DNA of 64,000 bases from Flavobacteriales bacterium (lineage in GTDB: Bacteria; Bacteroidota; Bacteroidia; CAIKAF01): contig JAGYKD010000002.1 of the NCBI GenBank assembly GCA_018401695.1, positions 238,636 to 302,635 of the forward strand, in the 5' to 3' direction. A model generated the notes under the pieces. The model ran no database searches, was not told the DNA's origin, and saw only the letters and a program-made list of their open reading frames with translations. The position numbers and the translations under genes are program-made. Below, piece after piece: positions 10,442 through 60,739 of the stretch. Within the stretch, counting starts at the first letter, position 1; each line of letters opens with the position of its first letter.

Positions 10442-10509
10442 AAAATCTCTACATGAACTTTTTTAATTAACTGATAAACAGAATTCATTGTTTTTTAAAA
10501 TCTCTACAT
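10442..10509 (+). repeat. 68 bp paired-motif element (AAAATCTCTACAT x2, 55 bp apart), copy A
   Basis: Same motif pair with identical spacing and a similar spacer at 51596-51663. Confidence 0.6.
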
Positions 10510-49887: not shown

Positions 49888-51273
49888 ATGAAATGGCGCA
49901 TCTTCTGGTTATTGGCCGGCCCTTTGGCCGCTTGGCTCGTTTTCCTCGCCTGCCTGCCCATGGGAGCAACCCAAGCCAAAACCCTGGGCTTGGGCGCATG
50001 GATGGTGCTTTGGTGGATAAGCCAACCCGTAAACCTGGCGGTAACTGCCCTGCTTCCCCTGGTCTTTTTTCCCTTGCTCAACCTCATGCCCGTTCGGCAA
50101 ACCGCCGCCTATTACGGCCACGACATCGTTTTTTTGTTTCTCGGTGGCTTTTTGATTGGTCTGGCCATGGAAAAACACCGCCTTCACGAGCGCATTGCCT
50201 TGCTTATTTTGCTCAAAACCGGTGGGCGCCCCATCAAAGTGCTTTTGGGCTTTATGTTGGCCACGGGTTTCCTAAGCATGTGGATCAGCAATACCGCCAC
50301 CACCCTTATGATGCTCCCCATGGCCACTTCCGTGCTCCCCGTGTTCAACAACGCCACTTTTGGTCGACGACTTCTGTTGGCCATTGCTTACAGCAGCAGC
50401 TTGGGGGGCATGGCCACCCTCATTGGCACGCCCCCCAATGTGGTTTTACGTGGACAACTTCAGGCCGCCGGATTGGGCGAGCTTTCCTTTTTTGCCTGGC
50501 TTGGCCTGGCCCTGCCCATAACCCTAGTCCTTGGAGCCCTTTTGTATATGCTCTTGGGCTATGGCTTAAAACACATGCAGGGCTCAGCCATCGACCAAAT
50601 CCGGCAACGCAAACATGCCTTAGGCAAACCCGGGCCGGAAGAAAAACGTGTAGCCCTTATCTTTGCCGCCACCGCTGCGGCTTGGATATTCAGGCCCCTA
50701 TTGGAGCAGCTCAGCGGATTGCCCTTAAACGACACCGGCATTGCCATGGCGGGTGGACTGTTGATGTTTATGGTGCCCTCCACCAAGGCCGGCAAAGCCC
50801 TGTTGGATTGGGACGACACCCGAAAAATGGCCTGGGGCATAATTCTCCTCTTTGGCGGTGGACTCAGCTTGGCAGCGGCCTTAGAGCAAGCCGGAATCAT
50901 ACAAAGCTTGGGCATGGCCGCAGCCGATTGGGGCAGCGGCGGACTCTTTGCGCTCATATTGGGACTTACGGCCCTGGCGCTGTTCCTCACCGAAATCATG
51001 AGCAACGTAGCCCTCGTGTCCATCCTCTTGCCTGTCGTCTTGGAGTTGGCCAAAAGCCTGGACATAAACCCCTTGCAATTGGCCATACCCGTCACCCTGG
51101 CCGCCAGTTGCGCCTTTATGTTGCCCATGGCCACCCCGCCGAACGCCCTTGTATTTGCCGGAGGACAACTCAAAGTAAGCCACATGAGCCGCTACGGCAT
51201 TTGGATGAACCTGGCTTCCGTCTTAGTCATCAGCCTTGCCGCCTGGCAATTCCTGCCCCTTTGGTTAAACTGA
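49888..51273 (+). CDS. DASS/SLC13-family anion:sodium symporter
   Basis: 461 aa, polytopic, two-fold repeated architecture. Confidence 0.65.
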   Translation: MKWRIFWLLAGPLAAWLVFLACLPMGATQAKTLGLGAWMVLWWISQPVNLAVTALLPLVFFPLLNLMPVRQTAAYYGHDIVFLFLGGFLIGLAMEKHRLHERIALLILLKTGGRPIKVLLGFMLATGFLSMWISNTATTLMMLPMATSVLPVFNNATFGRRLLLAIAYSSSLGGMATLIGTPPNVVLRGQLQAAGLGELSFFAWLGLALPITLVLGALLYMLLGYGLKHMQGSAIDQIRQRKHALGKPGPEEKRVALIFAATAAAWIFRPLLEQLSGLPLNDTGIAMAGGLLMFMVPSTKAGKALLDWDDTRKMAWGIILLFGGGLSLAAALEQAGIIQSLGMAAADWGSGGLFALILGLTALALFLTEIMSNVALVSILLPVVLELAKSLDINPLQLAIPVTLAASCAFMLPMATPPNALVFAGGQLKVSHMSRYGIWMNLASVLVISLAAWQFLPLWLN

Positions 51274-51394
51274 GTCTACCCTTTAAAAAGCTGCCCGACC
51301 CATAAAAATGTACGATGGGTTATTTGGGCGCCTAATCCGTCTCCGGCCATTAGCTGCCTTGTGGGCTAGCTACGCCGCTAAGCGTAGGCAAGGA

Positions 51395-51535
51395 GCTTCC
51401 TCTGGTCGCTCTTGCCTCCGCAGCGGCTGAGCAGCCCACATCGTCAGGCTAATTGGCCTGCGCCGGGGCGCGTTAAGCTCCGTGTGTATTTTTTTTGAAT
51501 GATGGCCCACAGTTGAAACCGTGGGCGGTAGTGCG
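51395..51535 (+). repeat. ~140 bp direct repeat, copy 1 (…GGTCGCTCTTGCC…CGTCAGGCTAATTGGCCTGCGCCGGGGCGCGTTAAGCTCCGTGTG…GTTGAAACCGTGGGC)
   Basis: About 85% identical to 51985-52123. Confidence 0.8.
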
Positions 51536-51595
51536 GGTGAAATCATGGGATGCGGTTGAAACCGTGGGCTGTGGTGTGGCCATTTTTAAAGGGAA

Positions 51596-51663
51596 AAATC
51601 TCTACATGGCTTTGTTTAGTTAATTGATTATCAACTGTTTTTTAAAACGAAAATCTCTACATC
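51596..51663 (+). repeat. 68 bp paired-motif element (AAAATCTCTACAT x2, 55 bp apart), copy B
   Basis: Homologous to 10442-10509, including the spacer. Confidence 0.6.
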
Positions 51664-51699
51664 CATAGTTTAAGGCAAAGAGTGCCTGCCAATCGTTCC

Positions 51700-51985
51700 C
51701 TGGCGCAGTTTAAACCGTGGGCTATGGTTTAACCATTGATAATTTCGCCGTTAAATAAACACCTGGGGATTCTATTCTTTCGAGAATTTTAAACCGTTAA
51801 AACGGTTGGCCGGACACGGCATTTCATATAGCCCACGGTTTAAACCGTGGGCTATGGTTTAACCATTGATAATTTCGCCGTTAAATAAACACCTAGGGAT
51901 TCTATTCTTTCGAGAATTTTAAACCGTTAAAACGGTTGGTCCGGACTCGGCATTTCATATAGCCCACGGTTTAAACCGTGGGCTT
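51700..51985 (+). repeat. tandem repeat, ~130 bp unit x2.2, each unit starting with perfect palindrome GCCCACGGTTTAAACCGTGGGC
   Basis: Units at about 51709-51838 and 51839-51969 differ by roughly three substitutions and one indel. A third partial unit follows. Confidence 0.85.
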
Positions 51986-52123
51986 CCTGTGGTCGCTCTT
52001 GGCCGGGCGGCTGCTGAGCACTCTATTTCGTCAGGCTAATTGGCCTGCGCCGGGGCGCGTTACGCTCCGTGTGGATTTTTTTTGAATGATGGCCCACGGT
52101 TGAAACCGTGGGCTATGATTTCA
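51985..52123 (+). repeat. ~140 bp direct repeat, copy 2
   Basis: Matches 51395-51535. Confidence 0.8.
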
Positions 52124-52150
52124 ACCGTGGGTTAAACATCGGTCAACAAG

Positions 52151-52303
52151 AATGCAACGCTTCATTTGCTGAGGCATTGCTATTCGACGCAATTGCTTGA
52201 GGCGGATGTCGATTTGCGGGTCATACAGGAGTTGCTTGGGCATAAGAGAAGATAGACAACAGAGATTTGCACACATGTTAGCAACCGGCTGCTTCAACTG
52301 GTT
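52151..52303 (+). pseudogene. tyrosine recombinase (integrase) C-terminal remnant
   Basis: Translates to …[50 protein letters not shown]. The canonical R-HxxR…LLGH…Y block has a premature stop and Cys in place of the catalytic Tyr. No upstream ORF. Confidence 0.7.
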
Positions 52304-52465
52304 GGTTCACCTTTCAATGACTTGTGAAAACTACTTATATTAGCAAAGGGTAATCGAATGAGGTAAACCATCACTTAGCCTACCATTGAGGGTGGATAAA
52401 TGAGGTTCAACCTCATTTATAAAGGAGTTGGGGCACATGCTAAAATGAACTAAGAACAAAACGAC

Positions 52466-52828
52466 ATGCTTGAATTTATATTAGGATTAACATCGGACAT
52501 TATTTCAAATTCGACTTCACTATCAAAAAAAGACAAGGACACTGTCCATAATGAAGTAACGTATGCATTGAACCAGACACGGACACACATCAGAAACACC
52601 AGACAGGGGAATACAGATCAACCATCTTCTCATTTATCCAATGTTTGGCAAAGAACAGGCAGGCGACTTAGACAAATTGGGCATACCGAAGTCCAAGGTC
52701 TTGCGGACACCATTGAGCAAAAAAGCAAATACTGGTCAGACCCTACTGACTATGATTTACAGAACTTAGACCAGTATGAAATGCGACTAACCCAAGTTGA
52801 AAGTAAATTGAATGAACTCTGCTCATGA
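52466..52828 (+). CDS. hypothetical protein (120 aa)
   Basis: ORF with ATGA coupling to the next gene. No recognisable motifs. Confidence 0.4.
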   Translation: MLEFILGLTSDIISNSTSLSKKDKDTVHNEVTYALNQTRTHIRNTRQGNTDQPSSHLSNVWQRTGRRLRQIGHTEVQGLADTIEQKSKYWSDPTDYDLQNLDQYEMRLTQVESKLNELCS

Positions 52829-53649
52829 AAAGGATTATTGCTACAATATCGTTTATGTACCTTGTTTCCATACCGACAATTGCCCAAAGCGACACAGTTA
52901 CTGTTCAGAAACTGGATAAAATTGAAAAGACGTTAAATGAAATTGCTCAACAACTTACCAATCAAAAAAGTGACTCATTAATTGTCTCCGTAGAGCACTT
53001 TGAGAAGTTGACAAATAGACTTCAAAAAAATGATAGCATCTGGCCTGACATTCTTCCTTCGTTGATTGCAATTTTCGTTGTATTGATATCCACTGGCGGA
53101 GCAATCTTCATTGGAGTTAGACAGATTAGAACTCAAACGACAAATGCGGAAGAGCAAATTAGAAGCCAAGAAGCGCAAGCACAAGATAACCTTCAGGTTG
53201 CTCGAGAACAAATTCAAGAGACATCGAGAATGACCTTGGCACAAGTAAGGGCAAACAATATTTCACAAGCACGAATTAACTGGATACAGGATTTAAGAAA
53301 TGAACTGAGTCAGTTTAATGGAGAAGTCGCAATAATTAACTTTTATCTTCATGATGTGGTGGAGTTGACAAAAGAGGGAAATAAGAAAAAAGCAGAAGAA
53401 TTATACAATCAACAAGTTGAGAGGATAAAAACCGCAAGACAATTAGCATTCAAAATCAAACTTTTTCTGAACAAAGGCGAAACAGACCATAAGAAACTTG
53501 AAGTTTTAATTAACGACTACTACACTTCCGCTCTTGAAACCTTTTCAAAAGTGAAGTCCGACTTTAATAAAGTAAGCAATGACATTCTGGATATTTCAAG
53601 AAAAATACTTAAAGACGCATGGGAACAGGCAAAAAATGAAGGAACATAA
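52825..53649 (+). CDS. hypothetical membrane-anchored coiled-coil protein (274 aa)
   Basis: N-terminal signal-like segment, one internal TM helix (LPSLIAIFVVLISTGGAIFIGV) and long heptad-like Q/E/K-rich stretches. Confidence 0.45.
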   Translation: MKRIIATISFMYLVSIPTIAQSDTVTVQKLDKIEKTLNEIAQQLTNQKSDSLIVSVEHFEKLTNRLQKNDSIWPDILPSLIAIFVVLISTGGAIFIGVRQIRTQTTNAEEQIRSQEAQAQDNLQVAREQIQETSRMTLAQVRANNISQARINWIQDLRNELSQFNGEVAIINFYLHDVVELTKEGNKKKAEELYNQQVERIKTARQLAFKIKLFLNKGETDHKKLEVLINDYYTSALETFSKVKSDFNKVSNDILDISRKILKDAWEQAKNEGT

Positions 53650-53894
53650 AGAACAAAAAGCACGATGCCCCAACAGCGCATATAGCTTATGGCGGGTGAC
53701 GGGATAAATTCAAGGTTTTCGGCACGTAGCAAAGTTTGTCATTGGGGACAGTTAAGTGCTCTAAAAACCGCCACAAGCCATATGCGCAAAACGTTAGCGT
53801 TCATTAGTGTGACGAGTTAACAGCGAAATTATACTTTTGACGGAGCGGTTTCCGAAAGGCCAAACGAGTAGTAATAATTAAAAAACAAAAAAAT

Positions 53895-54383
53895 ATGACA
53901 AAGAACAAGTCAATACCCATTTTGCTCCTCACAGCAGGAGTTCTTTGGGCGGGCCTCACACAAGCTCAGGAATCTGCCAATGCCTCCGGTGGTGATGCTA
54001 CAGGAAGCGGAGGTACTGTTGCTTACAGCGTTGGACAAGTGCTTTACACCTCCAATACAGGAAGCGGAGGAACTGTTGACCAAGGCGTGCAACATGCCTA
54101 CGAAATTTTCACGGTTGGTATAAAGAAAACAGAACTTAACATTTCGCTCACCGTATTTCCGAACCCAACAACAGAAAATTTAACCTTGCAAATAAGCGAT
54201 TACACCAACGAAAAGTTGTCGTATCAGTTATTTGATATGCAGGGAAAACAACTAAGCAAAGGGCAAATAGTAGCACAGCAAACACAAATAAACATTAATG
54301 GTCTGCCCTCCGCTACTTACTTCATTCATGTTGTAAACCAAGAAGACAAAAAAGTTCAATCATTCAAAATCATCAAAAACTAA
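53895..54383 (+). CDS. small secreted protein with T9SS C-terminal sorting domain
   Basis: Signal peptide. C-terminal …LTVFPNPTTENLTLQI…YFIHVVNQEDKKVQSFKIIKN. Confidence 0.6.
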   Translation: MTKNKSIPILLLTAGVLWAGLTQAQESANASGGDATGSGGTVAYSVGQVLYTSNTGSGGTVDQGVQHAYEIFTVGIKKTELNISLTVFPNPTTENLTLQISDYTNEKLSYQLFDMQGKQLSKGQIVAQQTQININGLPSATYFIHVVNQEDKKVQSFKIIKN

Positions 54384-54389
54384 ATAATC

Positions 54390-55274
54390 ATGAAAAGGAT
54401 AATTTCAATATGTGCAGCATTACTAATGACAGCAAGCGTGTTTGCCCAAGCACCCGAGAAAATAAGCTATCAAGCAGTTGTGCGTGACGGAAGTAATACT
54501 TTAGTTACGTCCTCCGCAGTAGGTATGCAAATAAGCATTTTACAAGGTTCATCAAGTGGAACGGCAGTGTACGTAGAAACGCAAACACCTACTTCTAATG
54601 CCAATGGTTTGGTAAGCATTGAAATTGGAGCAGGAACAATTGTAAGCGGGGGCTTTACCGCTATTGACTGGGCAAATGGACCGTATTTTATTAAAACAGA
54701 AACCGATCCGACAGGAGGGACAAATTACACCATTACAGGTATAAGCCAACTTTTAAGTGTGCCTTATGCCTTACATGCGAAAACGGCAGAAACAGTGTCA
54801 GGAGGAAAGGATTTTTATTTAGGACAAGATACGCTTGGTGGTATTGTATTTTATATTTATTTGGATGCGAATGGAGTACAACGTGGACTTATTTTAAATA
54901 AAAACGAAAGTACGGCACAATGGCAAGGCACCGGCACAACAACCAATGCTACACGCAGTTGGGATGGTGCTTACAATACAGGGTTAATGGCAAATAGCCC
55001 TGCTGCTAATTATGTGAATAGTTTAACAGATGGTGGATTTACAGACTGGTATTTACCTTCAGTTGACGAGTTAAGTATTTTATGGAACAACCGCTTTCAC
55101 GCTAATAATGCCCTAAATGCTGGAGGCTATACATTATTGTCAAGCGGCGCTTCCTATTGGAGTAGTACAGAGGGTAGTGCGGCGATCGCATTCCGCTTCG
55201 CCTTCAACGACGGTTACGCACTTAACACCAATAAGATTAATATTCATAGCGTGCGTGCCGTTCGGGCATTTTAA
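54390..55274 (+). CDS. secreted DUF1566 (Lcl C-terminal-like) domain protein
   Basis: Signal peptide and a …TDWYLPSVDELSILWNN… motif typical of DUF1566. Confidence 0.5.
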   Translation: MKRIISICAALLMTASVFAQAPEKISYQAVVRDGSNTLVTSSAVGMQISILQGSSSGTAVYVETQTPTSNANGLVSIEIGAGTIVSGGFTAIDWANGPYFIKTETDPTGGTNYTITGISQLLSVPYALHAKTAETVSGGKDFYLGQDTLGGIVFYIYLDANGVQRGLILNKNESTAQWQGTGTTTNATRSWDGAYNTGLMANSPAANYVNSLTDGGFTDWYLPSVDELSILWNNRFHANNALNAGGYTLLSSGASYWSSTEGSAAIAFRFAFNDGYALNTNKINIHSVRAVRAF

Positions 55275-55626
55275 CCATTTATCAATTTAATACCCTGAAG
55301 CGGTAGATTTTTGAAAATTAATGGCTCTGTATTACGAATTACCAGTTTTTAAGCTCGTATTGATTTTTGGTTATACCAAAGATTTTCCGCCAGAGTATAA
55401 ACATACGCTTGGGCAAGACAATAAATGAGACAACATACAACTAGTAAGGATTATATATATAGCCAATACATCGAACGCAAATAACAAACGCACCGCAAAC
55501 ATTTAGCCGATTAGCAGAAAAGCCCTGCCAAAATGCCTGAATGACCTTTTGTCTTTGTAAGCATCCGACCAACCCCATATTCCCCACCTCAAAATCCCCC
55601 CACAGCTTTGGGCAAAACAAAAAATT

Positions 55627-55842
55627 ATGTCCAAAAGCAATCAAAAACGTGAAGCCATGTTAGCTCTGATAGCGGAGTGGCGCCAAAACGGAGAAACCTA
55701 GGTACATTTTACTACCAAAAATGAAATCTCTTTCGCTAAATTTCAAAACTGGGTGCGCAAAAGCAAGGCTACCGCTGCACCGGAGGGTTCTTTGGAATTT
55801 CCGCTGCCAAGTGGATGTTCCGAAGATACTGCCCCCTGTTAA
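55627..55842 (+). pseudogene. transposase OrfA-like HTH protein remnant with in-frame amber stop
   Basis: MSKSNQKREAMLALIAEWRQNGET*VHFTTKNEISFAKFQNWVRKSK… The TAG at 55699-55701 interrupts a frame resembling IS3/IS66 accessory HTH proteins (F..W.RK). Confidence 0.3.
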
Positions 55843-56184
55843 GGCCATCTTGAACCAGGTGTGTCCTTTTGATTTGGCCTACAGGGCTTTGTTAACTTTT
55901 TAACGGCTTGCTATAAACCAATCAAAAGTGGTATTTTAGACTGGGAAATGGGGTAAGAACGGGGTTATTAGACGAACTGACGTTAGCAGCAACCCCAAAA
56001 AACAGATAATAAAAAATCGCGCAATGGCAATTTTCACACCACGTCGCCTAAAAATCAGATTAAGAAAAGACGAGGCCTTTACCTATATCGCGAGACTTCA
56101 CCCGAAGTTTTCTGCGTTCCAAGTTTAAAAACAGTTGAAGGAGTTGAGTTACTCCCAAGTACATTTTGAGACAGATGGATCGGT

Positions 56185-57111
56185 ATGAACAAAGGTGAAA
56201 TAGAAATATATAAAAGTGAAACCGGCACTGAGGTACAAGTCAAACTGGAAAAAGAAACGCTATGGCTTACCCAGAGACAAATGGCTGAGCTGTTCGAAAA
56301 AGATGCAGACACCATTGGGCTGCACCTCAAAAACATATACAGTGTTAAAGAGCTAGAGGAAAATACAACTACCGAGGATTACTCGGTAGTTCGGCCCGAA
56401 GGGAAAAGAATGGTTCGAAGAACCATCAAACACTATAACCTGGATGCCATTATATCAATAGGGTATCGAGTAAATTCCAAAAGAGGTACTCAATTCCGCA
56501 TCTGGGCTACCCAACGCTTAAAAGATTATCTGGTGCAGGGCTACGCAATCAATGAAAAACGATTGCAGCAAAAAGAGATGGAGGTGCAGCATTTGAAAAC
56601 AGGCATTCACATTTTAGGCAGAGCTATTGAGGAGAAAGCTGGAGAACAAGGGCATGAATGGCTGGTACACTACGCTAAAGGACTTGAGCTTCTAGATGAC
56701 TACGATCATGAAAATCTGGATAAACTCGGCAAGAGCAAGCAAGCAGCGGTTTATCCTGCCAAAGAAGAATACCACAAACTGATCCATCAAATGAAGATCG
56801 ATTTTGATTCAGCCCTGTTTGGGGTTGAAAAAGACCAAAGCTTTGATAGTGCCATAGCCCAAATAGCCCAAGGATTTGGCCATGAAGACATCTATCCTAC
56901 CTTAGAAGAAAAAGCGGCTATGCTGCTCTATCTTATCACCAAAAATCATGCTTTTGCCGATGGCAACAAACGCATTGCCGCAGCCTGTTTTCTTTTATTT
57001 TTAGACCGAAACCACTTACTGACGAATACCCGTAATGACCAAATTATTAGCCATGAAGCCTTGGCTAGCCTAACGCTATTTGTGGCAAGCAGTAGGCCTG
57101 AAGAAATGTAG
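56185..57111 (+). CDS. RhuM-family protein with Fic/Doc motif (HxFxDGNKR)
   Basis: The N-terminus (IEIYKSETGTEVQVKLEKETLWLTQRQMAELF) is the RhuM signature. C-terminal HAFADGNKRIAA is the Doc/Fic catalytic motif. Confidence 0.75.
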   Translation: MNKGEIEIYKSETGTEVQVKLEKETLWLTQRQMAELFEKDADTIGLHLKNIYSVKELEENTTTEDYSVVRPEGKRMVRRTIKHYNLDAIISIGYRVNSKRGTQFRIWATQRLKDYLVQGYAINEKRLQQKEMEVQHLKTGIHILGRAIEEKAGEQGHEWLVHYAKGLELLDDYDHENLDKLGKSKQAAVYPAKEEYHKLIHQMKIDFDSALFGVEKDQSFDSAIAQIAQGFGHEDIYPTLEEKAAMLLYLITKNHAFADGNKRIAAACFLLFLDRNHLLTNTRNDQIISHEALASLTLFVASSRPEEM

Positions 57112-57152
57112 GCTGTAAAAGGATTAATTATTAGTGTATTAAATAGAAATCA

Positions 57153-57257
57153 ATGAGCAACGAATCAAGCATTGTTTCAAAAGTTTGGTGTTTCGCAAGC
57201 GTACTCCGCGACGATGTGCACTCCTCTTTCTTCGTGGCCGGTATGTATTCCTTGTGA
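57153..57257 (+). pseudogene. N-terminal stub of an HsdM-type (type I R-M) methyltransferase
   Basis: MSNESSIVSKVWCFASVLRDDVHSSFFVAGMYSL* matches the conserved HsdM N-terminal helix (…KLW.FCN.LRDDGV…). It is truncated after 34 aa. Confidence 0.4.
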
Positions 57258-57500
57258 GTTGCTCTCCGGCAGAGCACACTTCCACTTCAATACTGACACT
57301 GCCAAGGTCTCAACTATTTTTTATATTTTCAACATGTCTAGTTTAGGGGAAGCCCACAAGAACAATGTTGGTAGAATCACCATATTTATTAACTATGCAC
57401 CAAACCAGTCTTAATGTTTTGTAACCCATGGAAAAACCAAAAGTAAACGAACTCGATAAAGCATATAAAAGATGCCGAAAAATTATTAAATTTTGAGGGT

Positions 57501-57830
57501 ATGAGTGAGATCAAAAATATTGTAGAAAAGCTGATTGCATTTAGAGATGAAAGAGATTGGGCTCAGTTTCATAATCCCAAAGATTTGGCCATTGCTTTAA
57601 ATATTGAGGCAGGAGAACTGCTTGAAGCATTTCTTTGGAAAGGCCCAGAAGATGCGGATATTGAAAAAGTAAAAGAAGAATTAGCCGATGTGTTTGCCTA
57701 CGCTTTTTTGATTGCCGATAAATATAAGTTTGATGTTGTCGAAATTGTTACAACAAAAATTAAAGAAAATGGGGAGAAATATCCTGTGAGTAAAGCTAAG
57801 GGATCTGCGAAGAAATATAATGAATTATGA
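57501..57830 (+). CDS. MazG-like nucleotide pyrophosphohydrolase (small all-alpha NTP-PPase)
   Basis: 109 aa. EAGELLEAFLWK and EELADVFAYAFLIA motifs. ATGA overlap with the downstream gene. Confidence 0.7.
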   Translation: MSEIKNIVEKLIAFRDERDWAQFHNPKDLAIALNIEAGELLEAFLWKGPEDADIEKVKEELADVFAYAFLIADKYKFDVVEIVTTKIKENGEKYPVSKAKGSAKKYNEL

Positions 57831-60031
57831 ATCCCATAGGCGAAATTGTTATTGACTTAAATCGATACCCTTTTTCAAAAAACGCACTTGCCGAAATTTC
57901 AGAAAATAAATGGGTTAAAACTCAATGGCCCTTGGTGTATCTAATAAAAAACGACAAAACCAAAGTGGCGTATGTTGGAGAGACGACCAATGCGTTTAAT
58001 AGAATTAAAAACCATTTTGCTAACGAAGACCGTTTGGTTCTAGATACCATTACATTAATCGGATCCGATCGTTTTAACAAGTCTGCTACCCTTGATATCG
58101 AGTCTCAACTCATTCAATATTTGTCGGCAGAAAACACCTATAAACTTCAAAATGGAAATGGTGGACTAACCCACCACAATTACTACGAAAAGCCTTTCTA
58201 TCGAGATATTTTCAAAGAGATATGGGCACGACTAAAGAGTGAAAAATTAGTTAGCAAGTCGCTAGAGGAAATCGAAAATTCGGATTTGTTTAAATACTCT
58301 CCCTACAAAGCGCTTTCCGATGATCAAAGAGCCTCAGTAATGAAGATTATTCATACGCTAAACAACCAGAACCATCCGAGTATTTTTGTGGAAGGTAGTG
58401 CGGGAACTGGTAAGACCATTCTTGCAACTTACTTGATGAAGCTTTTACATTCACCTCTGCCAGCTGCTGACGAGATAGAAGATTTAGAAGGATACCGTTT
58501 GGAGGAGTATCGATTGCTTGAATTATTTCGCCAAAAGTTTAAAGATGCAACTATTGGTTTGGTTGTGCCTATGACCTCCTTACGCAAAAGTCTTAAAACT
58601 GTATTTGGTGCAATTGGTGGGCTTAAAAGGAGTATGGTTATTGGTCCTTCGGATGCGGTTGAAAAAGAATACGACATCCTAATTGTTGATGAAGCTCATC
58701 GGTTAGCTCAACGTAAAAATATTCCGAATTATGGGTCTTTTGATGCCATAAACCGCTCCTTGGGATTAGGAATTGAAGGCACTCAGCTTGATTGGATAAT
58801 CCGAAGTAGTAAGCACCAGATATTTTTTTACGATGAAGCGCAATCGATTAAGCCCTCCGATATCCCTAAGGAAAGGTTTAACGAATTAAAACGCCAATCA
58901 GCAAAACCCATCAAGCTTACTTCTCAAATGCGGGTTTCGGCGGGTTCCGACTATATCAATTTTGTAGACCGCTTGTTGAAATGTCAACCTCTCGATGATT
59001 TGACCATTCCCGAGAATTATGACTTTAGGTTGTTTACATCTTTCAAAGAATTTCATAATGAGATTATTATTAAAGAAAATGAACTGGGATTGAGTCGCCT
59101 CATTGCCGGGTATTCGTGGCCTTGGATTTCAAAAAGCGATAAAAGCTTGTATGACATTGAAATCGAAGGGACGAAATTGCAATGGAACAAGGTGAACGTA
59201 GATTGGATTAACTCCGCCGATCCGAAAGTGGAAGTAGGTTGTATTCATACTACGCAAGGGTATGACTTAAACTATGCCGGGATTATCTTTGGCAAAGAAA
59301 TAACCTACAATAAAAAACTGAATCGAATAGAAATTATCAGAAAAAACTACCACGATAGAAATGGAAGCGCAGGGATTAATGATGATGAGCGTTTGAAAGA
59401 ATATGTTGTCAATATTTATAAGACCATTATGTATCGGGGGATTAAAGGAACTTTGGTTTATGCTTGCAATCCGGAATTAAGGGACTATTTGGCTGCTTAT
59501 ATTAAACATGAAACATGGGAAAGAGGCGCAACCTCTGTAGAAAAAGAATCATTTTTTAGAGTCTTGGATTTCGAAAAGGTGCTGCCTTACCAAAACGCAA
59601 TTCCCTTGGTTGATATACAAGCCGCTGCAGGAAATTTTAGCGAAAACCAACAGCATTCGGAATTAACATGGGTTGAAATTCCCGATGGATTAAGGGTGAG
59701 TGAAGGCGATTTTATTTGCCAAGTTATTGGCGAATCCATGAATAAACGCATTCCAAATGGATCTTTTTGCCTATTCAAACCATATTCGGGTGGATCACGA
59801 AATGGTAAAATCGTATTAGTTGAGTCAACTAGTATACAAGATTCAGAATTTGGTTCAGGATATACGGTAAAAGAATACCACAGCATAAAAAAAAATTCTG
59901 ATAGCGGTTGGAGTCATGAGTCAATTGTATTAAAACCGCTATCGACTGATGGAGAATACTCAAATATTGTTTTACAAAAAGATGAATTGGTGGATTTTAG
60001 GGTTGTCGGAGTATTCGAGAGAGTAATCTAA
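57827..60031 (+). CDS. GIY-YIG nuclease-like / Schlafen-like (DUF2075) P-loop ATPase with C-terminal LexA-type S24 autopeptidase domain
   Basis: N-terminal VYLIKN…AYVGETTN…R..NH (GIY-YIG). Walker A at GSAGTGKT and a DEAH box at ILIVDEAHRL. C-terminal PLVDIQAAAGNF (Ala-Gly site), GESM (Ser) and TVKEY (Lys) in LexA/UmuD spacing. Confidence 0.7.
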   Translation: MNPIGEIVIDLNRYPFSKNALAEISENKWVKTQWPLVYLIKNDKTKVAYVGETTNAFNRIKNHFANEDRLVLDTITLIGSDRFNKSATLDIESQLIQYLSAENTYKLQNGNGGLTHHNYYEKPFYRDIFKEIWARLKSEKLVSKSLEEIENSDLFKYSPYKALSDDQRASVMKIIHTLNNQNHPSIFVEGSAGTGKTILATYLMKLLHSPLPAADEIEDLEGYRLEEYRLLELFRQKFKDATIGLVVPMTSLRKSLKTVFGAIGGLKRSMVIGPSDAVEKEYDILIVDEAHRLAQRKNIPNYGSFDAINRSLGLGIEGTQLDWIIRSSKHQIFFYDEAQSIKPSDIPKERFNELKRQSAKPIKLTSQMRVSAGSDYINFVDRLLKCQPLDDLTIPENYDFRLFTSFKEFHNEIIIKENELGLSRLIAGYSWPWISKSDKSLYDIEIEGTKLQWNKVNVDWINSADPKVEVGCIHTTQGYDLNYAGIIFGKEITYNKKLNRIEIIRKNYHDRNGSAGINDDERLKEYVVNIYKTIMYRGIKGTLVYACNPELRDYLAAYIKHETWERGATSVEKESFFRVLDFEKVLPYQNAIPLVDIQAAAGNFSENQQHSELTWVEIPDGLRVSEGDFICQVIGESMNKRIPNGSFCLFKPYSGGSRNGKIVLVESTSIQDSEFGSGYTVKEYHSIKKNSDSGWSHESIVLKPLSTDGEYSNIVLQKDELVDFRVVGVFERVI

Positions 60032-60216
60032 TTGCTATTTAATAGCCAAAAACCTTTTGTTCTAACCCAATGGCCTTTAGTGGCCAGCCAAAACGGGACA
60101 ACAAACACCAAGTGCATAAATTTGAGACAAATTCAAGCACTAAAGAACTTTGAATTTGGGCTTTAACCTGAGAGAATGGCTAAGTCCATTCCATTACTCG
60201 GCCAACAAACCCTAGG

Positions 60217-60365
60217 CCACGGTTGAAACCGTGGGCTATGTGAAATGCCGAGGCAGGGCCAACCGTTTTAACGGTTTAAAAATCTTGAAAAAAGGAATCC
60301 CCGCGGTTTTGTTTAATTGCCAAATCATCCATGGTTAAACCATAGCCCCAGGTTTCAACGGCGTT
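60217..60365 (-). repeat. inverted copy of the 130 bp repeat unit plus CCACGGTTGAAACCGTGGG palindrome
   Basis: The reverse complement aligns with 51709-51838 over most of its length. Additional CCACGG/CCGTGG palindromes lie at 60395-60480. Confidence 0.75.
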
Positions 60366-60739
60366 TATGAAATGGGAAATGGATGCATCCATTGCATTAG
60401 CACGGTAAATAGCCGTGGGCTGCGATACATACTTTCTATTCCTAGGTAAACTGCCCACAACCCAGGGTTGTGCCCGTGGGATTAATTGGCAAAGAAATGC
60501 TGGGGGCCCAGAAGGCGGCTTTGCCATGTTTTGCGGGCTGCGGCATAGGCCATAATAAATTTTAATTTGCTTTGGGAGGGACCTCCGTCAAAAATAAGGT
60601 GCTTATGAAATGCGGAGTTTGAAGAGGAAAGGTGTGTCATACGCTAGGTTTAATTGCTGTATCCGTGAAGGAGCTGTTGAGACTCGCTACTAAACCATAA
60701 CGCAGGGACAGGGACCTTAGTATATAGGCGCTTAAAAAA

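Follow-up and report, generated by a model that had tools for sequence, protein, structure and literature searches.

A non-coding repeat locus in a Flavobacteriales genome: a probable REP/BIME-like hairpin cluster tied to a Y1 transposase family

The stretch of Flavobacteriales DNA analysed here (64 000 nt; hereafter the window) contains, between a transporter gene and an island of low GC content, a block of non-coding sequence composed of direct repeats, tandem units and palindromes. The gene content of the window is of the Bacteroidota type (T9SS sorting domain, BatD). What kind of element is this block, and is it peculiar to this locus? The locus is best explained as a cluster of non-coding, non-autonomous REP/BIME-like hairpin modules, tied to the subclass-1.2 family of Y1 HUH transposases; we give this reading a probability of roughly three in four. 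It is not a new kind of element.

The features of the locus are listed in table 1. A first-pass annotation, made from the sequence alone, had reported direct repeats of ~140 bp with ~85% identity around a tandem 130-bp unit. The direct repeats are found as two copies of 132 nt that are 88.6–89% identical, the earlier figures being obtained when a few bases further are included. The tandem array is also as described, its 2.13 copies repeating with a period of 130 and being 98–99% identical; it was detected by repeat search and blastn, and TRF listed no 130-bp array. On the minus strand a unit is made up of hairpin A' AATGGTTAAACCAT, the abutting hairpin B (the REP), 22 nt, hairpin C AACCGTTTTAACGGTT and 54 nt. 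The main palindrome GCCCACGGTTTAAACCGTGGGC is located at 51831–51852 and 51962–51983, but it is longer than the 22 bp stated: the perfect palindrome extends over 28 bp in one copy (ATAG-CCCACGG-TTTAAA-CCGTGGG-CTAT) and over 26 bp in the other. The second palindrome, now hairpin C, was correctly identified in both units, with arms of 7 nt and a centre of 2 nt. Variant and half copies, of which the annotation had noted variants of the half-site at the junctions, recur at 51506–51525, 51553–51571, 51708–51725, 52093–52112 and 52119–52134.

Table 1. Features of the repeat locus and the adjoining island (window coordinates).
Feature	Position	Strand	Remarks
Long imperfect hairpin	51345–51458	+	Host context; just 3' of the DASS/CitMHS transporter gene (49888–51273); fold of 51300–51500 as RNA −95.9 kcal/mol, z = −5.9; outer pair 51345/51458, apex 51400–51404
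Direct repeat copy 1, 132 nt	51395–51526	+	GC 0.56, host-like; contains 3' arm of long hairpin, terminator-like stem 51464–51482, T8 run 51489–51496 and REP hairpin 51505–51526 with one stem mismatch
Half/degenerate REP copy CGGTTGAAACCGTGGGCTG	51553–51571	+	5' arm decayed
Two AAATCTCTACAT boxes, 55 nt apart, in 'mid' segment	51596–51662	+	Separate small repeat; identical pair also at 10443–10509
Tandem 130-bp module, 2.13 copies	51708–51984	−	GC 0.415
3' half copy of REP hairpin B	51708–51725		
Hairpin A' ATGGTTTAACCAT	51724–51736	.	Second copy 51854–51866
Hairpin C AACCGTTAAAACGGTT	51792–51807	.	Second copy 51922–51937
REP hairpin B, 28-bp perfect palindrome ATAGCCCACGGTTTAAACCGTGGGCTAT	51828–51855	.	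Further full copy 51959–51984
Direct repeat copy 2, 132 nt	51982–52113	+	GC 0.57, host-like, between low-GC segments; terminator-like stem 52051–52069; right end is REP 52092–52113, then CTAT tag
3' half REP TTTCAACCGTGGGTTA	52119–52134	+	Directly abuts truncated recombinase gene
Low-GC (~0.40) island, ~8 kb	52135–60173	.	Bracketed by both repeat clusters; outside the repeat family
Tyrosine-recombinase pseudogene	52136–52327	+	C-terminal ~62 codons only, in-frame stop, ends SPFNDL (stop); Pfam Phage_integrase 37 bits; best NCBIfam match, C-terminus of integron-integrase/Xer models
Complete A-B-C module	60174–60276	+	Hairpin-A-like GAATGGCTAAGTCCATTC 60174–60191; 26 nt; REP 60216–60235; CTAT 60236–60239; 21 nt; hairpin C 60261–60276
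Decayed further copies	60331–60422	+	Hairpin A' 60331–60343, then degenerate REP up to ~60365; hairpin-A-like AATGGATGCATCCATT 60378–60393, then degenerate REP 60401–60422

There is no open reading frame of at least 60 aa in the interval 51274–52465, in line with the first-pass annotation, although the recombinase pseudogene fragment lies within it. This truncated gene had been overlooked, together with the long hairpin, the low-GC island and a further, inverted copy of the unit. This copy (60207–60374, 83% identical) is situated 8 kb away, at 60.2 kb, so that two clusters in opposite orientation (51.5–52.1 kb and 60.2–60.4 kb) flank the island, and within the window the hairpin is confined to these two clusters. 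The 3' arm of the long hairpin forms the first part of direct repeat copy 1, and it is this arm that the 132-nt repeat duplicates; the hairpin matches no Rfam family, 6S and SRP included, even when E ≤ 10 is allowed. Neither this hairpin nor the 132-nt repeat, the recombinase fragment or the 'mid' segment is matched in the compared genome and metagenome loci; all four are local sequence outside the family.

The REP hairpin is clearly overrepresented in the window. The 11-mer AAACCGTGGGC is matched 12 times with at most one mismatch, against 1.87 matches expected (none of 100 shuffles reaches 12), and there are four full hairpins with at least five of the six outer pairs, against none in 100 simulated sequences. 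The 20–28-nt hairpin, folded as single-stranded DNA, has an energy of −11.5 to −13.5 kcal/mol (−13.5 for the 28-bp palindrome, z = −7.7). Nor is the unit unique to this locus, a possibility that the first-pass annotation had raised: its 18-bp core CCACGGTTKAAACCGTGG is found in more than 118 genome stretches, mostly from Bacteroidota, several genomes supplying two or three of the loci. We estimate that about 0.03 occurrences of this core would be expected by chance in 596 Gb. The flanks give the extended consensus ATAGCCCACGGTT(T/G)AAACCGTGGGCTAT. Carriage by phages was considered and rejected, almost all of the 62 IMG/VR matches to the 18-mer being another conserved context that lacks the CTAT tag.

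Across these genomes the core hairpin has the form ATAG-CCCACGGT-T(T/G)AA-ACCGTGGG-CTAT (20–28 nt), with a tag, ATAG/CTAT, that is exact in only about half of the copies. Together with two smaller hairpins (A, AATGGTTAAACCATT-like, and C, identical to that of the tandem unit) it makes up a module of ~105–130 nt. Both the units of the window, taken in minus-strand orientation, and the copy at 60.2 kb belong to this family: they align with modules found upstream of tnpA in other genomes over the REP, the spacer and hairpin C, with an REP-to-C gap of 21–22 nt in the window and 23–28 nt elsewhere, and an A-to-REP gap of 26 nt in the 60.2-kb copy and 24–28 nt elsewhere. Tandem arrays are a trait of the family, being present at eight other loci with periods of 55–248 bp. 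The segments between palindromes are near-identical in two of these arrays, as in the window, where the 102–108 nt in question are 98–99% identical across units and are not unique spacers; the earlier exclusion of a CRISPR array is thus upheld.

The stem of the hairpin covaries. Among the stem variants, 41 + 23 + 11 are fully compensated and 12 carry a single broken pair; the covariation score over 99 distinct sequences is 0.276, against 0.155 ± 0.010 after shuffling (0/500 reach it) and 0.05–0.12 for slid partners. Pairing of the stem is under selection. Covariation of a palindrome suits a symmetric double-stranded DNA binding site equally well as a hairpin; another of the arrays holds three different stem variants, which favours structure over sequence. 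The palindromes are also biased towards intergenic positions: only 27% of them lie inside long ORFs, compared with 83% of random positions (118 loci, other genomes).

A single ORF family recurs beside the palindrome. It encodes a protein of ~143 aa, present at 13–15 of the 118 loci and separated from the palindrome by a median of 65 bp, which matches Pfam Y1_Tnp (95 bits) and the NCBIfam IS200/IS605 transposase model (70.7 bits, cutoff 55) and does not pass the REP-associated-transposase model NF047646 (36.6 bits, cutoff 80). The closest solved structure is ISDra2 TnpA, and the motifs DH[IV]H, WQ and YIKNQKxHH are those of subclass 1.2 of Quentin et al. 2018 (PMC6006769). The linkage holds in the reciprocal test, in which 80 metagenome loci were chosen only by the protein that they encode (at the 95% identity level they form 77 clusters, with a median pairwise identity of 61%). 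A hairpin with at most two mismatches lies within 300 bp of the gene in 64 of the 80 loci, that is 60 of the 77 clusters, and on both sides of it in 30 clusters; hairpin density is 2.76 per kb near the gene and 0.116 per kb farther off. In the other 17 tnpA clusters no hairpin is found within 300 bp; some of their flanks are cut, and one syntenic lineage lacks the hairpin. Hairpins that flank tnpA are typically 580–605 bp apart (range 480–605), both sides carry one type of A-B-C module, and in other genomes hairpin C follows the REP and precedes the start codon of tnpA. With 15 of the 118 loci adjoining tnpA, a rough calculation suggests a modest copy number of about ten per genome.

No subclass-1.2 tnpA or remnant of it is detected in the 64-kb window, either by tblastn or by a profile search at maximum sensitivity. 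An autonomous IS200/IS605 element is thereby rejected, and the copies in the window are non-autonomous. The REPs that end the two 132-nt repeats are 587 bp apart, a spacing that fits the 580–605 bp seen around tnpA and might point to a decayed gene between them; since no remnant is found, we take it as coincidence. The suggestion of a MITE-like cluster or protein-binding array can be kept in so far as the modules are non-coding, non-autonomous and likely binding sites of a transposase-family protein. It probably does not extend to classical MITEs: the linked enzyme is a Y1 HUH transposase, a class without terminal inverted repeats and target duplications, and since the units share the palindrome that bounds them, a target-site duplication cannot be defined.

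By analogy with E. coli TnpA(REP)/RAYT and with the TnpA proteins of IS608 and ISDra2, the transposase would bind the single-stranded hairpin (e.g. ATAG-CCCACGGTTTAAACCGTGGG) and would cut and rejoin DNA at the hairpin foot, with the flanking ATAG tag as a guide. Such activity would account for the spread of transposase-less modules between genes, for tandem arrays and for rearrangement junctions located at hairpin feet, and may also have produced the 132-nt duplication. Two junctions of the window coincide precisely with hairpin feet. At one, direct repeat copy 2 is fused on its left to the foot of the REP before it, its right end being itself a REP; the other is where the integrase gene is broken off. 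A break of the assembly at the REP was also considered. The only other contig with the transporter gene (Logan) ends at 51280, a position that precedes the hairpin and is not at the REP, and it therefore says little.

The same chemistry would apply if the family were simply a selfish IS200-type insertion sequence, tnpA with its hairpins being an ordinary autonomous element and the units of the window its dead solo ends or miniature PATE- or MITE-like derivatives; the difference concerns evolutionary status. The protein does pass the IS200/IS605 equivalog and fail the REP-transposase model, the hairpins flank the gene at a regular distance like left and right IS ends, and homologues are carried by plasmids, although these amount to two distant ones, on large plasmids, with 37–41% identity. 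Subclass 1.2, however, has been characterized by a low copy number (1.7 per genome), by copies only 36% identical to one another and by the lack of IS properties (PMC6006769). In addition, tnpA occupies lineage-specific syntenic positions (a restriction–modification gene is a common neighbour in nine loci and another gene is shared by nine), most palindromes are solitary, and the hairpin is nearly invariant across the phylum, unlike IS ends. Nor is tnpA with its flanks known to be multi-copy or, as a whole, mobile in the manner of IS200/IS605. We consider a merely selfish element unlikely.

The position of the repeats beside a recombinase fragment and a low-GC island could instead indicate a Xer/dif- or integron-like site, with the palindrome as the core site of a tyrosine recombinase and the island integrated between two such sites. 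The 28-bp palindrome indeed has an 11-6-11 layout, the fragment, whose best partial match is to integron-integrase/Xer, begins 1 nt past the last half-site, and a perfect 24-bp direct repeat CCACGGTTGAAACCGTGGGCTATG is found on either side of the island (52094–52117 and 60217–60240). Yet a Xer-like ORF lies within 2.5 kb in only three of the 118 loci, at a median of 1.2 kb, the steady partner being the Y1 transposase. The repeats truncated this gene and did not serve it: since its reading direction is rightwards, towards the interior of the island, the lost 5' part would have run leftwards over the repeats. The right-hand REP sits in a complete A-B-C module in which hairpin A has the canonical spacing, and the 24-bp identity is hence that of two family copies and not a target duplication. 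Different stem variants within one array argue against a sequence-specific duplex site, and the sequences GTTTAAA and GTTGAAA depart from the GTTRRRY of the attC core (RYYYAAC/GTTRRRY). We consider this reading very unlikely. ARAGORN found no tRNA or tmRNA in the window that might act as an att site; with the gathering-level Rfam scan of the 64 kb, which returned nothing, this bears out the earlier statement that the locus is not a tRNA or rRNA.

A further reading places the function in RNA, the hairpin acting once transcribed as a small RNA of the Acido-Lenti-1 type, a terminator or an mRNA-stabilising stem–loop. Acido-Lenti-1 (Rfam RF01687; Weinberg et al. 2010, PMC2864571) is filed by Rfam as a candidate small RNA motif of two other phyla, and the accessible part of its record carries no transposase link (PMC2864571). 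The model hits every full copy in the window at 20.6–24.7 bits, below its threshold of 37, whereas copies from Verrucomicrobiota and Acidobacteriota with an identical hairpin sequence score 37.4–58.7 bits and exceed it. The idea that the unit might belong to a family already described is thus half borne out: the hairpin is related to this motif, but the window copies do not reach its threshold. In common with Acido-Lenti-1 the window copies have a stem of 8 bp, a loop of 4 nt and, on the 3' side, the tag GCUA(U); they differ from it in their sub-threshold scores and in that the alignment covers only hairpin 1 and the GCUA tag, the second hairpin of the model being missing. No Y1 transposase ORF is found within 8 kb of Acido-Lenti-1-type copies at E ≤ 1 (27 loci). 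The copies are intergenic, as this reading would have it, but their perfect palindromes are the same on both strands and are found in either orientation, no T-run belongs to the REP hairpins themselves, and linkage to a DNA transposase accounts better for their distribution. A role in RNA as the main explanation is very unlikely; it is nevertheless compatible with the REP/BIME-like reading. Classical REPs act as terminators and mRNA stabilisers.

The locus itself is an ordinary outcome of its repeat family, a REP/BIME-like cluster at a rearrangement-prone junction beside a foreign island, and the family is the more useful result. It supplies a cognate DNA partner for a transposase subclass described as having neither REPs nor terminal hairpins, it gives Bacteroidota REP-like elements of phylum-wide conserved sequence, and it suggests that the orphan Rfam 'small RNA' motif Acido-Lenti-1 is a DNA repeat of the same kind. 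In annotation, these hairpins should not be called small RNAs or CRISPR-like arrays; they are likely hotspots of assembly breaks and recombination. In the searchable literature library the hairpin strings do not occur, and we found no paper naming such REPs in Bacteroidota. More tentatively, subclass-1.2 TnpA and the three-hairpin module might represent a second REP/RAYT-like system, independently domesticated from the IS200 clade and inherited across Bacteroidota, with Acido-Lenti-1 as the same DNA-level element in Acidobacteriota, Verrucomicrobiota and Lentisphaerota. We hold this broader proposal to be possible, though on balance somewhat doubtful. If true, the deep conservation of the hairpin would imply a function at the level of the host, and not mere selfish spread, for example in the processing of single-stranded DNA at replication forks or in genome structuring. 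The family in any case offers a testable system for how Y1 HUH transposases become domesticated.

Besides Acido-Lenti-1, three known systems invite comparison. The ends of IS200/IS605 elements and PATEs carry subterminal hairpins that are read on single-stranded DNA by a Y1 transposase, without terminal inverted repeats or target-site duplication. The position of hairpin C just upstream of the start codon recalls the left-end stem–loops of IS200; the presence of one module type on both sides of tnpA, in place of distinct left and right ends, does not.

The protein agrees with subclass 1.2 of Quentin et al. 2018 (PMC6006769) in its motifs (DH[IV]H, WQ, YIKNQKEHH), size (~148 aa) and occurrence in Bacteroidetes. 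Those authors list the subclass without REP or terminal hairpins (PMC6006769), whereas a conserved hairpin lies close to the gene in most of the clusters examined here (60/77, ≤300 bp). Group 3 of Bertels 2017 may be likened to the same family by its description: no duplicates, absence from plasmids and abundant 16-mers flanking the gene, the repeat itself not being described (PMC5581495).

The closest likeness is to the REP/BIME elements of Proteobacteria. Together with their RAYT/TnpA-REP proteins these reportedly form a 'REPtron', work said to go back to Nunvar 2010, Bertels & Rainey 2011 and Ton-Hoang 2012. The system is also treated by Corneloup 2021 (PMC8266576). The two have in common a palindromic hairpin that is short and stable and carries a conserved tetranucleotide at the foot, copies that lie between genes, clusters and tandem arrays of alternating orientation, a predominance of solitary, non-autonomous copies, and a small, low-copy Y1 HUH gene flanked by hairpins (seen here in other genomes, the gene being absent from the window). 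The family described here differs in its protein, which is of class 1 (IS200-like subclass 1.2) and not class 2 and fails the REP-transposase model, and in its tag, ATAG/CTAT in place of the GT[AG]G of RAYT systems. Its unit has three hairpins, and its sequence is almost invariant over a whole phylum, whereas classical REPs are species-specific.

The palindrome at the centre of the repeat locus is repeated in the window far beyond chance: its 11-mer has 12 matches where 1.87 are expected, and four full hairpins are present compared with none in simulated sequences. The first-pass annotation described direct repeats of about 140 bp with about 85 per cent identity, enclosing about 2.2 tandem copies of a 130-bp unit built around a perfect 22-bp palindrome. 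The tandem array, the second internal palindrome and the recurring half-site variants were all recovered; the direct repeats exist but are somewhat shorter and more similar, and the palindrome is perfect over a greater length than was claimed. The inverted copy at 60.2 kb, the low-GC 8 kb, the recombinase remnant at 52136 and the long-hairpin arm in the 132-nt repeat had been overlooked. A CRISPR array, which that annotation had already rejected together with a tRNA, is excluded as the identity of the repeats, as are a tRNA/tmRNA att site and known RNA families.

Positions of the repeats and neighbouring features in the window
Feature	Position	Strand	Properties
AAATCTCTACAT box pairs	10443-10509 and 51596-51662		spacing exactly 55 nt
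Long imperfect hairpin	51345-51458	+	114 nt, z = -5.9
132-nt direct repeats	51395-51526 and 51982-52113		89% identity
Variant and half copies of the main palindrome	starts 51506, 51553, 51708, 52093, 52119		
Tandem array	51708-51984		period 130, 2.13 copies, 98-99% identity
Second palindrome, AACCGTTAAAACGGTT	51792-51807 and 51922-51937		
Main palindrome, ATAGCCCACGGTTTAAACCGTGGGCTAT	51828-51855		perfect, 28 bp
Copy of the main palindrome	51959-51984		26 bp
Low-GC island	52135-60173		GC ~0.40, 8 kb, flanked by both repeat clusters
Tyrosine recombinase C-terminal fragment	52136-52327	+	~62 codons, in-frame stop
Inverted copy of the 130-bp unit	60207-60374		83% identity

The 132-nt repeat contains the 3′ arm of the long hairpin, a terminator-like stem, a T8 run and a copy of the palindrome. 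Both copies have a host-like GC content of 0.56–0.57, and the sequence between them has 0.42. They diverge by 11 per cent, compared with 1–2 per cent for the 130-bp units, which indicates that the 132-nt duplication predates amplification of the unit. The left end of the second copy is the foot of the palindrome (hereafter REP, or hairpin B), fused to sequence that forms the long-hairpin apex in the first copy; this second copy also terminates in a REP. The long hairpin directly follows a DASS/CitMHS transporter gene and is succeeded by the terminator-like stem and the T8 run, ending at 51496 on the plus strand. The region 51345-51496, with no Rfam match and no copy among all fetched loci, may represent either a complex terminator or a small RNA that has not been described. 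Another small repeat is formed by the AAATCTCTACAT box (four matches, 0.31 expected), whose 10.4-kb pair is located in an intergenic region of 1 kb, upstream of a gene for an S41 peptidase; none of the 261 fetched loci contains this box.

Copies elsewhere, for which the first-pass annotation had proposed a search, are widespread. With one genome scanned per species, CCACGGTTKAAACCGTGG occurs in at least 118 genome stretches, with about 0.03 matches expected by chance on our own estimate. Among those listed, Bacteroidota are the majority (Flavobacterium, Chitinophagaceae, Cytophagales, Saprospiraceae, Algoriphagus and others), and Verrucomicrobiota, Acidobacteriota and Ignavibacteria a minority. 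The flanks lengthen the consensus to ATAG…CTAT, and copies with an asymmetric loop (TTGAAA) carry this tag on a single side. Palindromes avoid coding sequence, 27 per cent lying inside long ORFs among the listed loci versus 83 per cent of random positions. Tandem arrays of the module are also found in other genomes (periods 55, 62, 66–69, 73, 144–148 and 248 bp) and are thus a family trait. On 62 IMG/VR viral-collection contigs (L200–L261), many from sample 3300045988, the 18-bp hairpin core was observed as well. Nearly all of these copies lie within a different conserved element of about 65 nt, GGCCTTTCAYC-hairpin-GCTTTCCCGGCCTTCATTTTGTAA, without the CTAT tag; this element, apparently with a defined 3′ end, is probably unrelated or only distantly related.

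Sequence variation indicates selection on the hairpin stem. Of 212 hairpins with at most four mismatches, 41 have one fully compensated swapped pair, 23 have two and 11 combine a swap with a wobble, compared with 12 in which a single pair is broken. The covariation score of 99 distinct sequences is 0.276, versus 0.155±0.010 for shuffles (0/500 reach the observed value), and slid-partner controls give 0.05–0.12. The ATAG/CTAT columns are paired in only about half of the sequences and so appear to act as a tag, not as stem. Covariation in a palindrome cannot by itself tell a hairpin constraint from a duplex site; the mixture of three stem variants within one array (L163) fits a structural constraint more readily than recognition of a specific duplex sequence.

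As a forward test, the ORFs lying up to 2.5 kb from palindromes at the listed loci were all clustered. A single strongly recurrent family was obtained, a protein of about 143 aa that is encoded at 13 listed loci, or 15 when tblastn is used, with a median of 65 bp to the palindrome. It matches Pfam Y1_Tnp (95 bits), and ISDra2 TnpA is the closest protein of solved structure; its DH[IV]H, WQ and YIKNQKxHH motifs, length and taxonomy are those of IS200-like subclass 1.2 (Quentin et al. 2018, PMC6006769), for which that paper lists neither REPs nor terminal hairpins. [quoted passage not shown] 2017, PMC5581495), may be the same family. In the reciprocal test, 80 metagenome loci were retrieved by the protein alone (77 clusters at 95% identity; median pairwise identity 61%). 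A hairpin with at most two mismatches occurs within 300 bp of the transposase gene, tnpA, at 64 of these loci (60/77 clusters) and on both sides in 30/77 clusters, usually 55–80 bp upstream and 30–80 bp downstream. Hairpin density is 2.76 per kb near tnpA versus 0.116 per kb beyond 300 bp. Neither tnpA nor a remnant of it was found in the 64-kb window.

At nine metagenome loci (L122, L123, L124, L126–L128, L132, L133 and L147), tnpA lies directly 3′ of a large (at least 958 aa) type-IIG-like restriction/methylase gene whose product ends …LYDLTEEEIKIVEGNG; in most of them the stop codon falls inside hairpin A, the proteins ending in NG. In a syntenic lineage (L170, L177, L181 and L188), tnpA stands between rhodanese-like (UPF0176-type) genes and no recognisable hairpin was found within 300 bp of it; this lineage may have lost the repeat, or its copy may have diverged.

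Around tnpA, the REP occupies the central place in a module of three hairpins, in the order hairpin A (AATGGTTAAAACCATT or AATGGATAAATCCATT), 24–28 nt, hairpin B, 23–28 nt, hairpin C (AACCGTTTTAACGGTT), about 15–35 nt and ATG. The same A-B-C module is found again downstream, and compensated variants are seen in hairpins A and C too. The 130-bp unit and the 60.2-kb copy can both be aligned with tnpA-upstream modules: on the minus strand the unit reads A′ (the counterpart of hairpin A)-B-22 nt-C-54 nt, and on the plus strand the 60.2-kb copy has all of A-B-C, its hairpin A being spaced by the canonical 26 nt. The window hairpins score 20.6–24.7 bits against Rfam Acido-Lenti-1, under the threshold of 37. 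Fifteen of 18 scanned loci of other phyla (mostly Verrucomicrobiota and Acidobacteriota) exceed it at 37.4–58.7 bits, the hairpin being the same but accompanied by another small one; a search of these 8-kb loci revealed no ORF for a Y1 transposase. Twelve Verrucomicrobiota/Acidobacteriota copies above the threshold (L005, L024, L026, L027, L037, L043, L047, L052, L057, L076, L086 and L102), some of them from MAG bins labelled otherwise, often have a GC-rich mini-hairpin, gtcgcccctccggggc, on both sides, again giving a three-hairpin layout; none of the twelve has a Y1 transposase within 8 kb.

We interpret the window locus, with a probability of about 0.75, as a REP/BIME-like cluster of non-autonomous modules from the family of subclass-1.2 TnpA. 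If it acts like TnpA-REP (PMC8266576) and IS608/ISDra2 TnpA, the transposase would bind to the hairpin in single-stranded form and would cut and join DNA at the hairpin foot. This would explain how the modules disperse, why tandem arrays form and why junctions lie at hairpin feet. Such junctions are seen in the window at the start of the second 132-nt copy and where the recombinase gene is cut at a half REP. A selfish insertion sequence with miniature derivatives would rely on identical chemistry, and is unlikely in view of the low copy number, the syntenic tnpA positions and the constancy of the hairpin sequence across the phylum. We consider a primary RNA role for the repeats, which could coexist with the REP/BIME interpretation, improbable.

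The region between the repeat clusters has a GC content of 0.37–0.42 versus 0.46–0.56 outside, and has the appearance of a small island with defence or accessory functions. It encodes a T9SS-sorted (T9SS-tail) protein, an Lcl_C protein, a MazG-like pyrophosphatase, a RhuM/Fic protein that matches PDC-S23, a candidate defence system in PADLOC, at 399 bits, and a protein of 734 aa in which GIY-YIG, Schlafen-type/DUF2075 helicase and S24 peptidase domains are combined, with weak similarity to Nhi/AbiO. The recombinase fragment, whose best partial matches are integron-integrase and XerC/D models, lacks the N-terminal ~250 codons, the break lying 1 nt from the last half REP. Its position beside the repeats, and a direct repeat of 24 bp with copies at 52094 and 60217, would suit tyrosine-recombinase sites delimiting the island. 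However, the palindrome has no recombinase association elsewhere among the listed loci, the remnant is itself cut short by the repeats, and the REP on the right lies in an intact module, which makes this the least probable reading.

REP/BIME elements with a Y1 transposase are an already known kind, and the window locus is an ordinary member of the family. In the literature searched, we found no description of the ATAG tag or of the module with its three hairpins, nor of a hairpin sequence constant throughout the phylum, a link to subclass 1.2 or a connection with Acido-Lenti-1. The family differs from the NCBIfam REP-associated transposases in its protein, which scores 36.6 bits against their cutoff of 80 and instead fits the IS200/IS605 transposase model (70.7 bits, cutoff 55).
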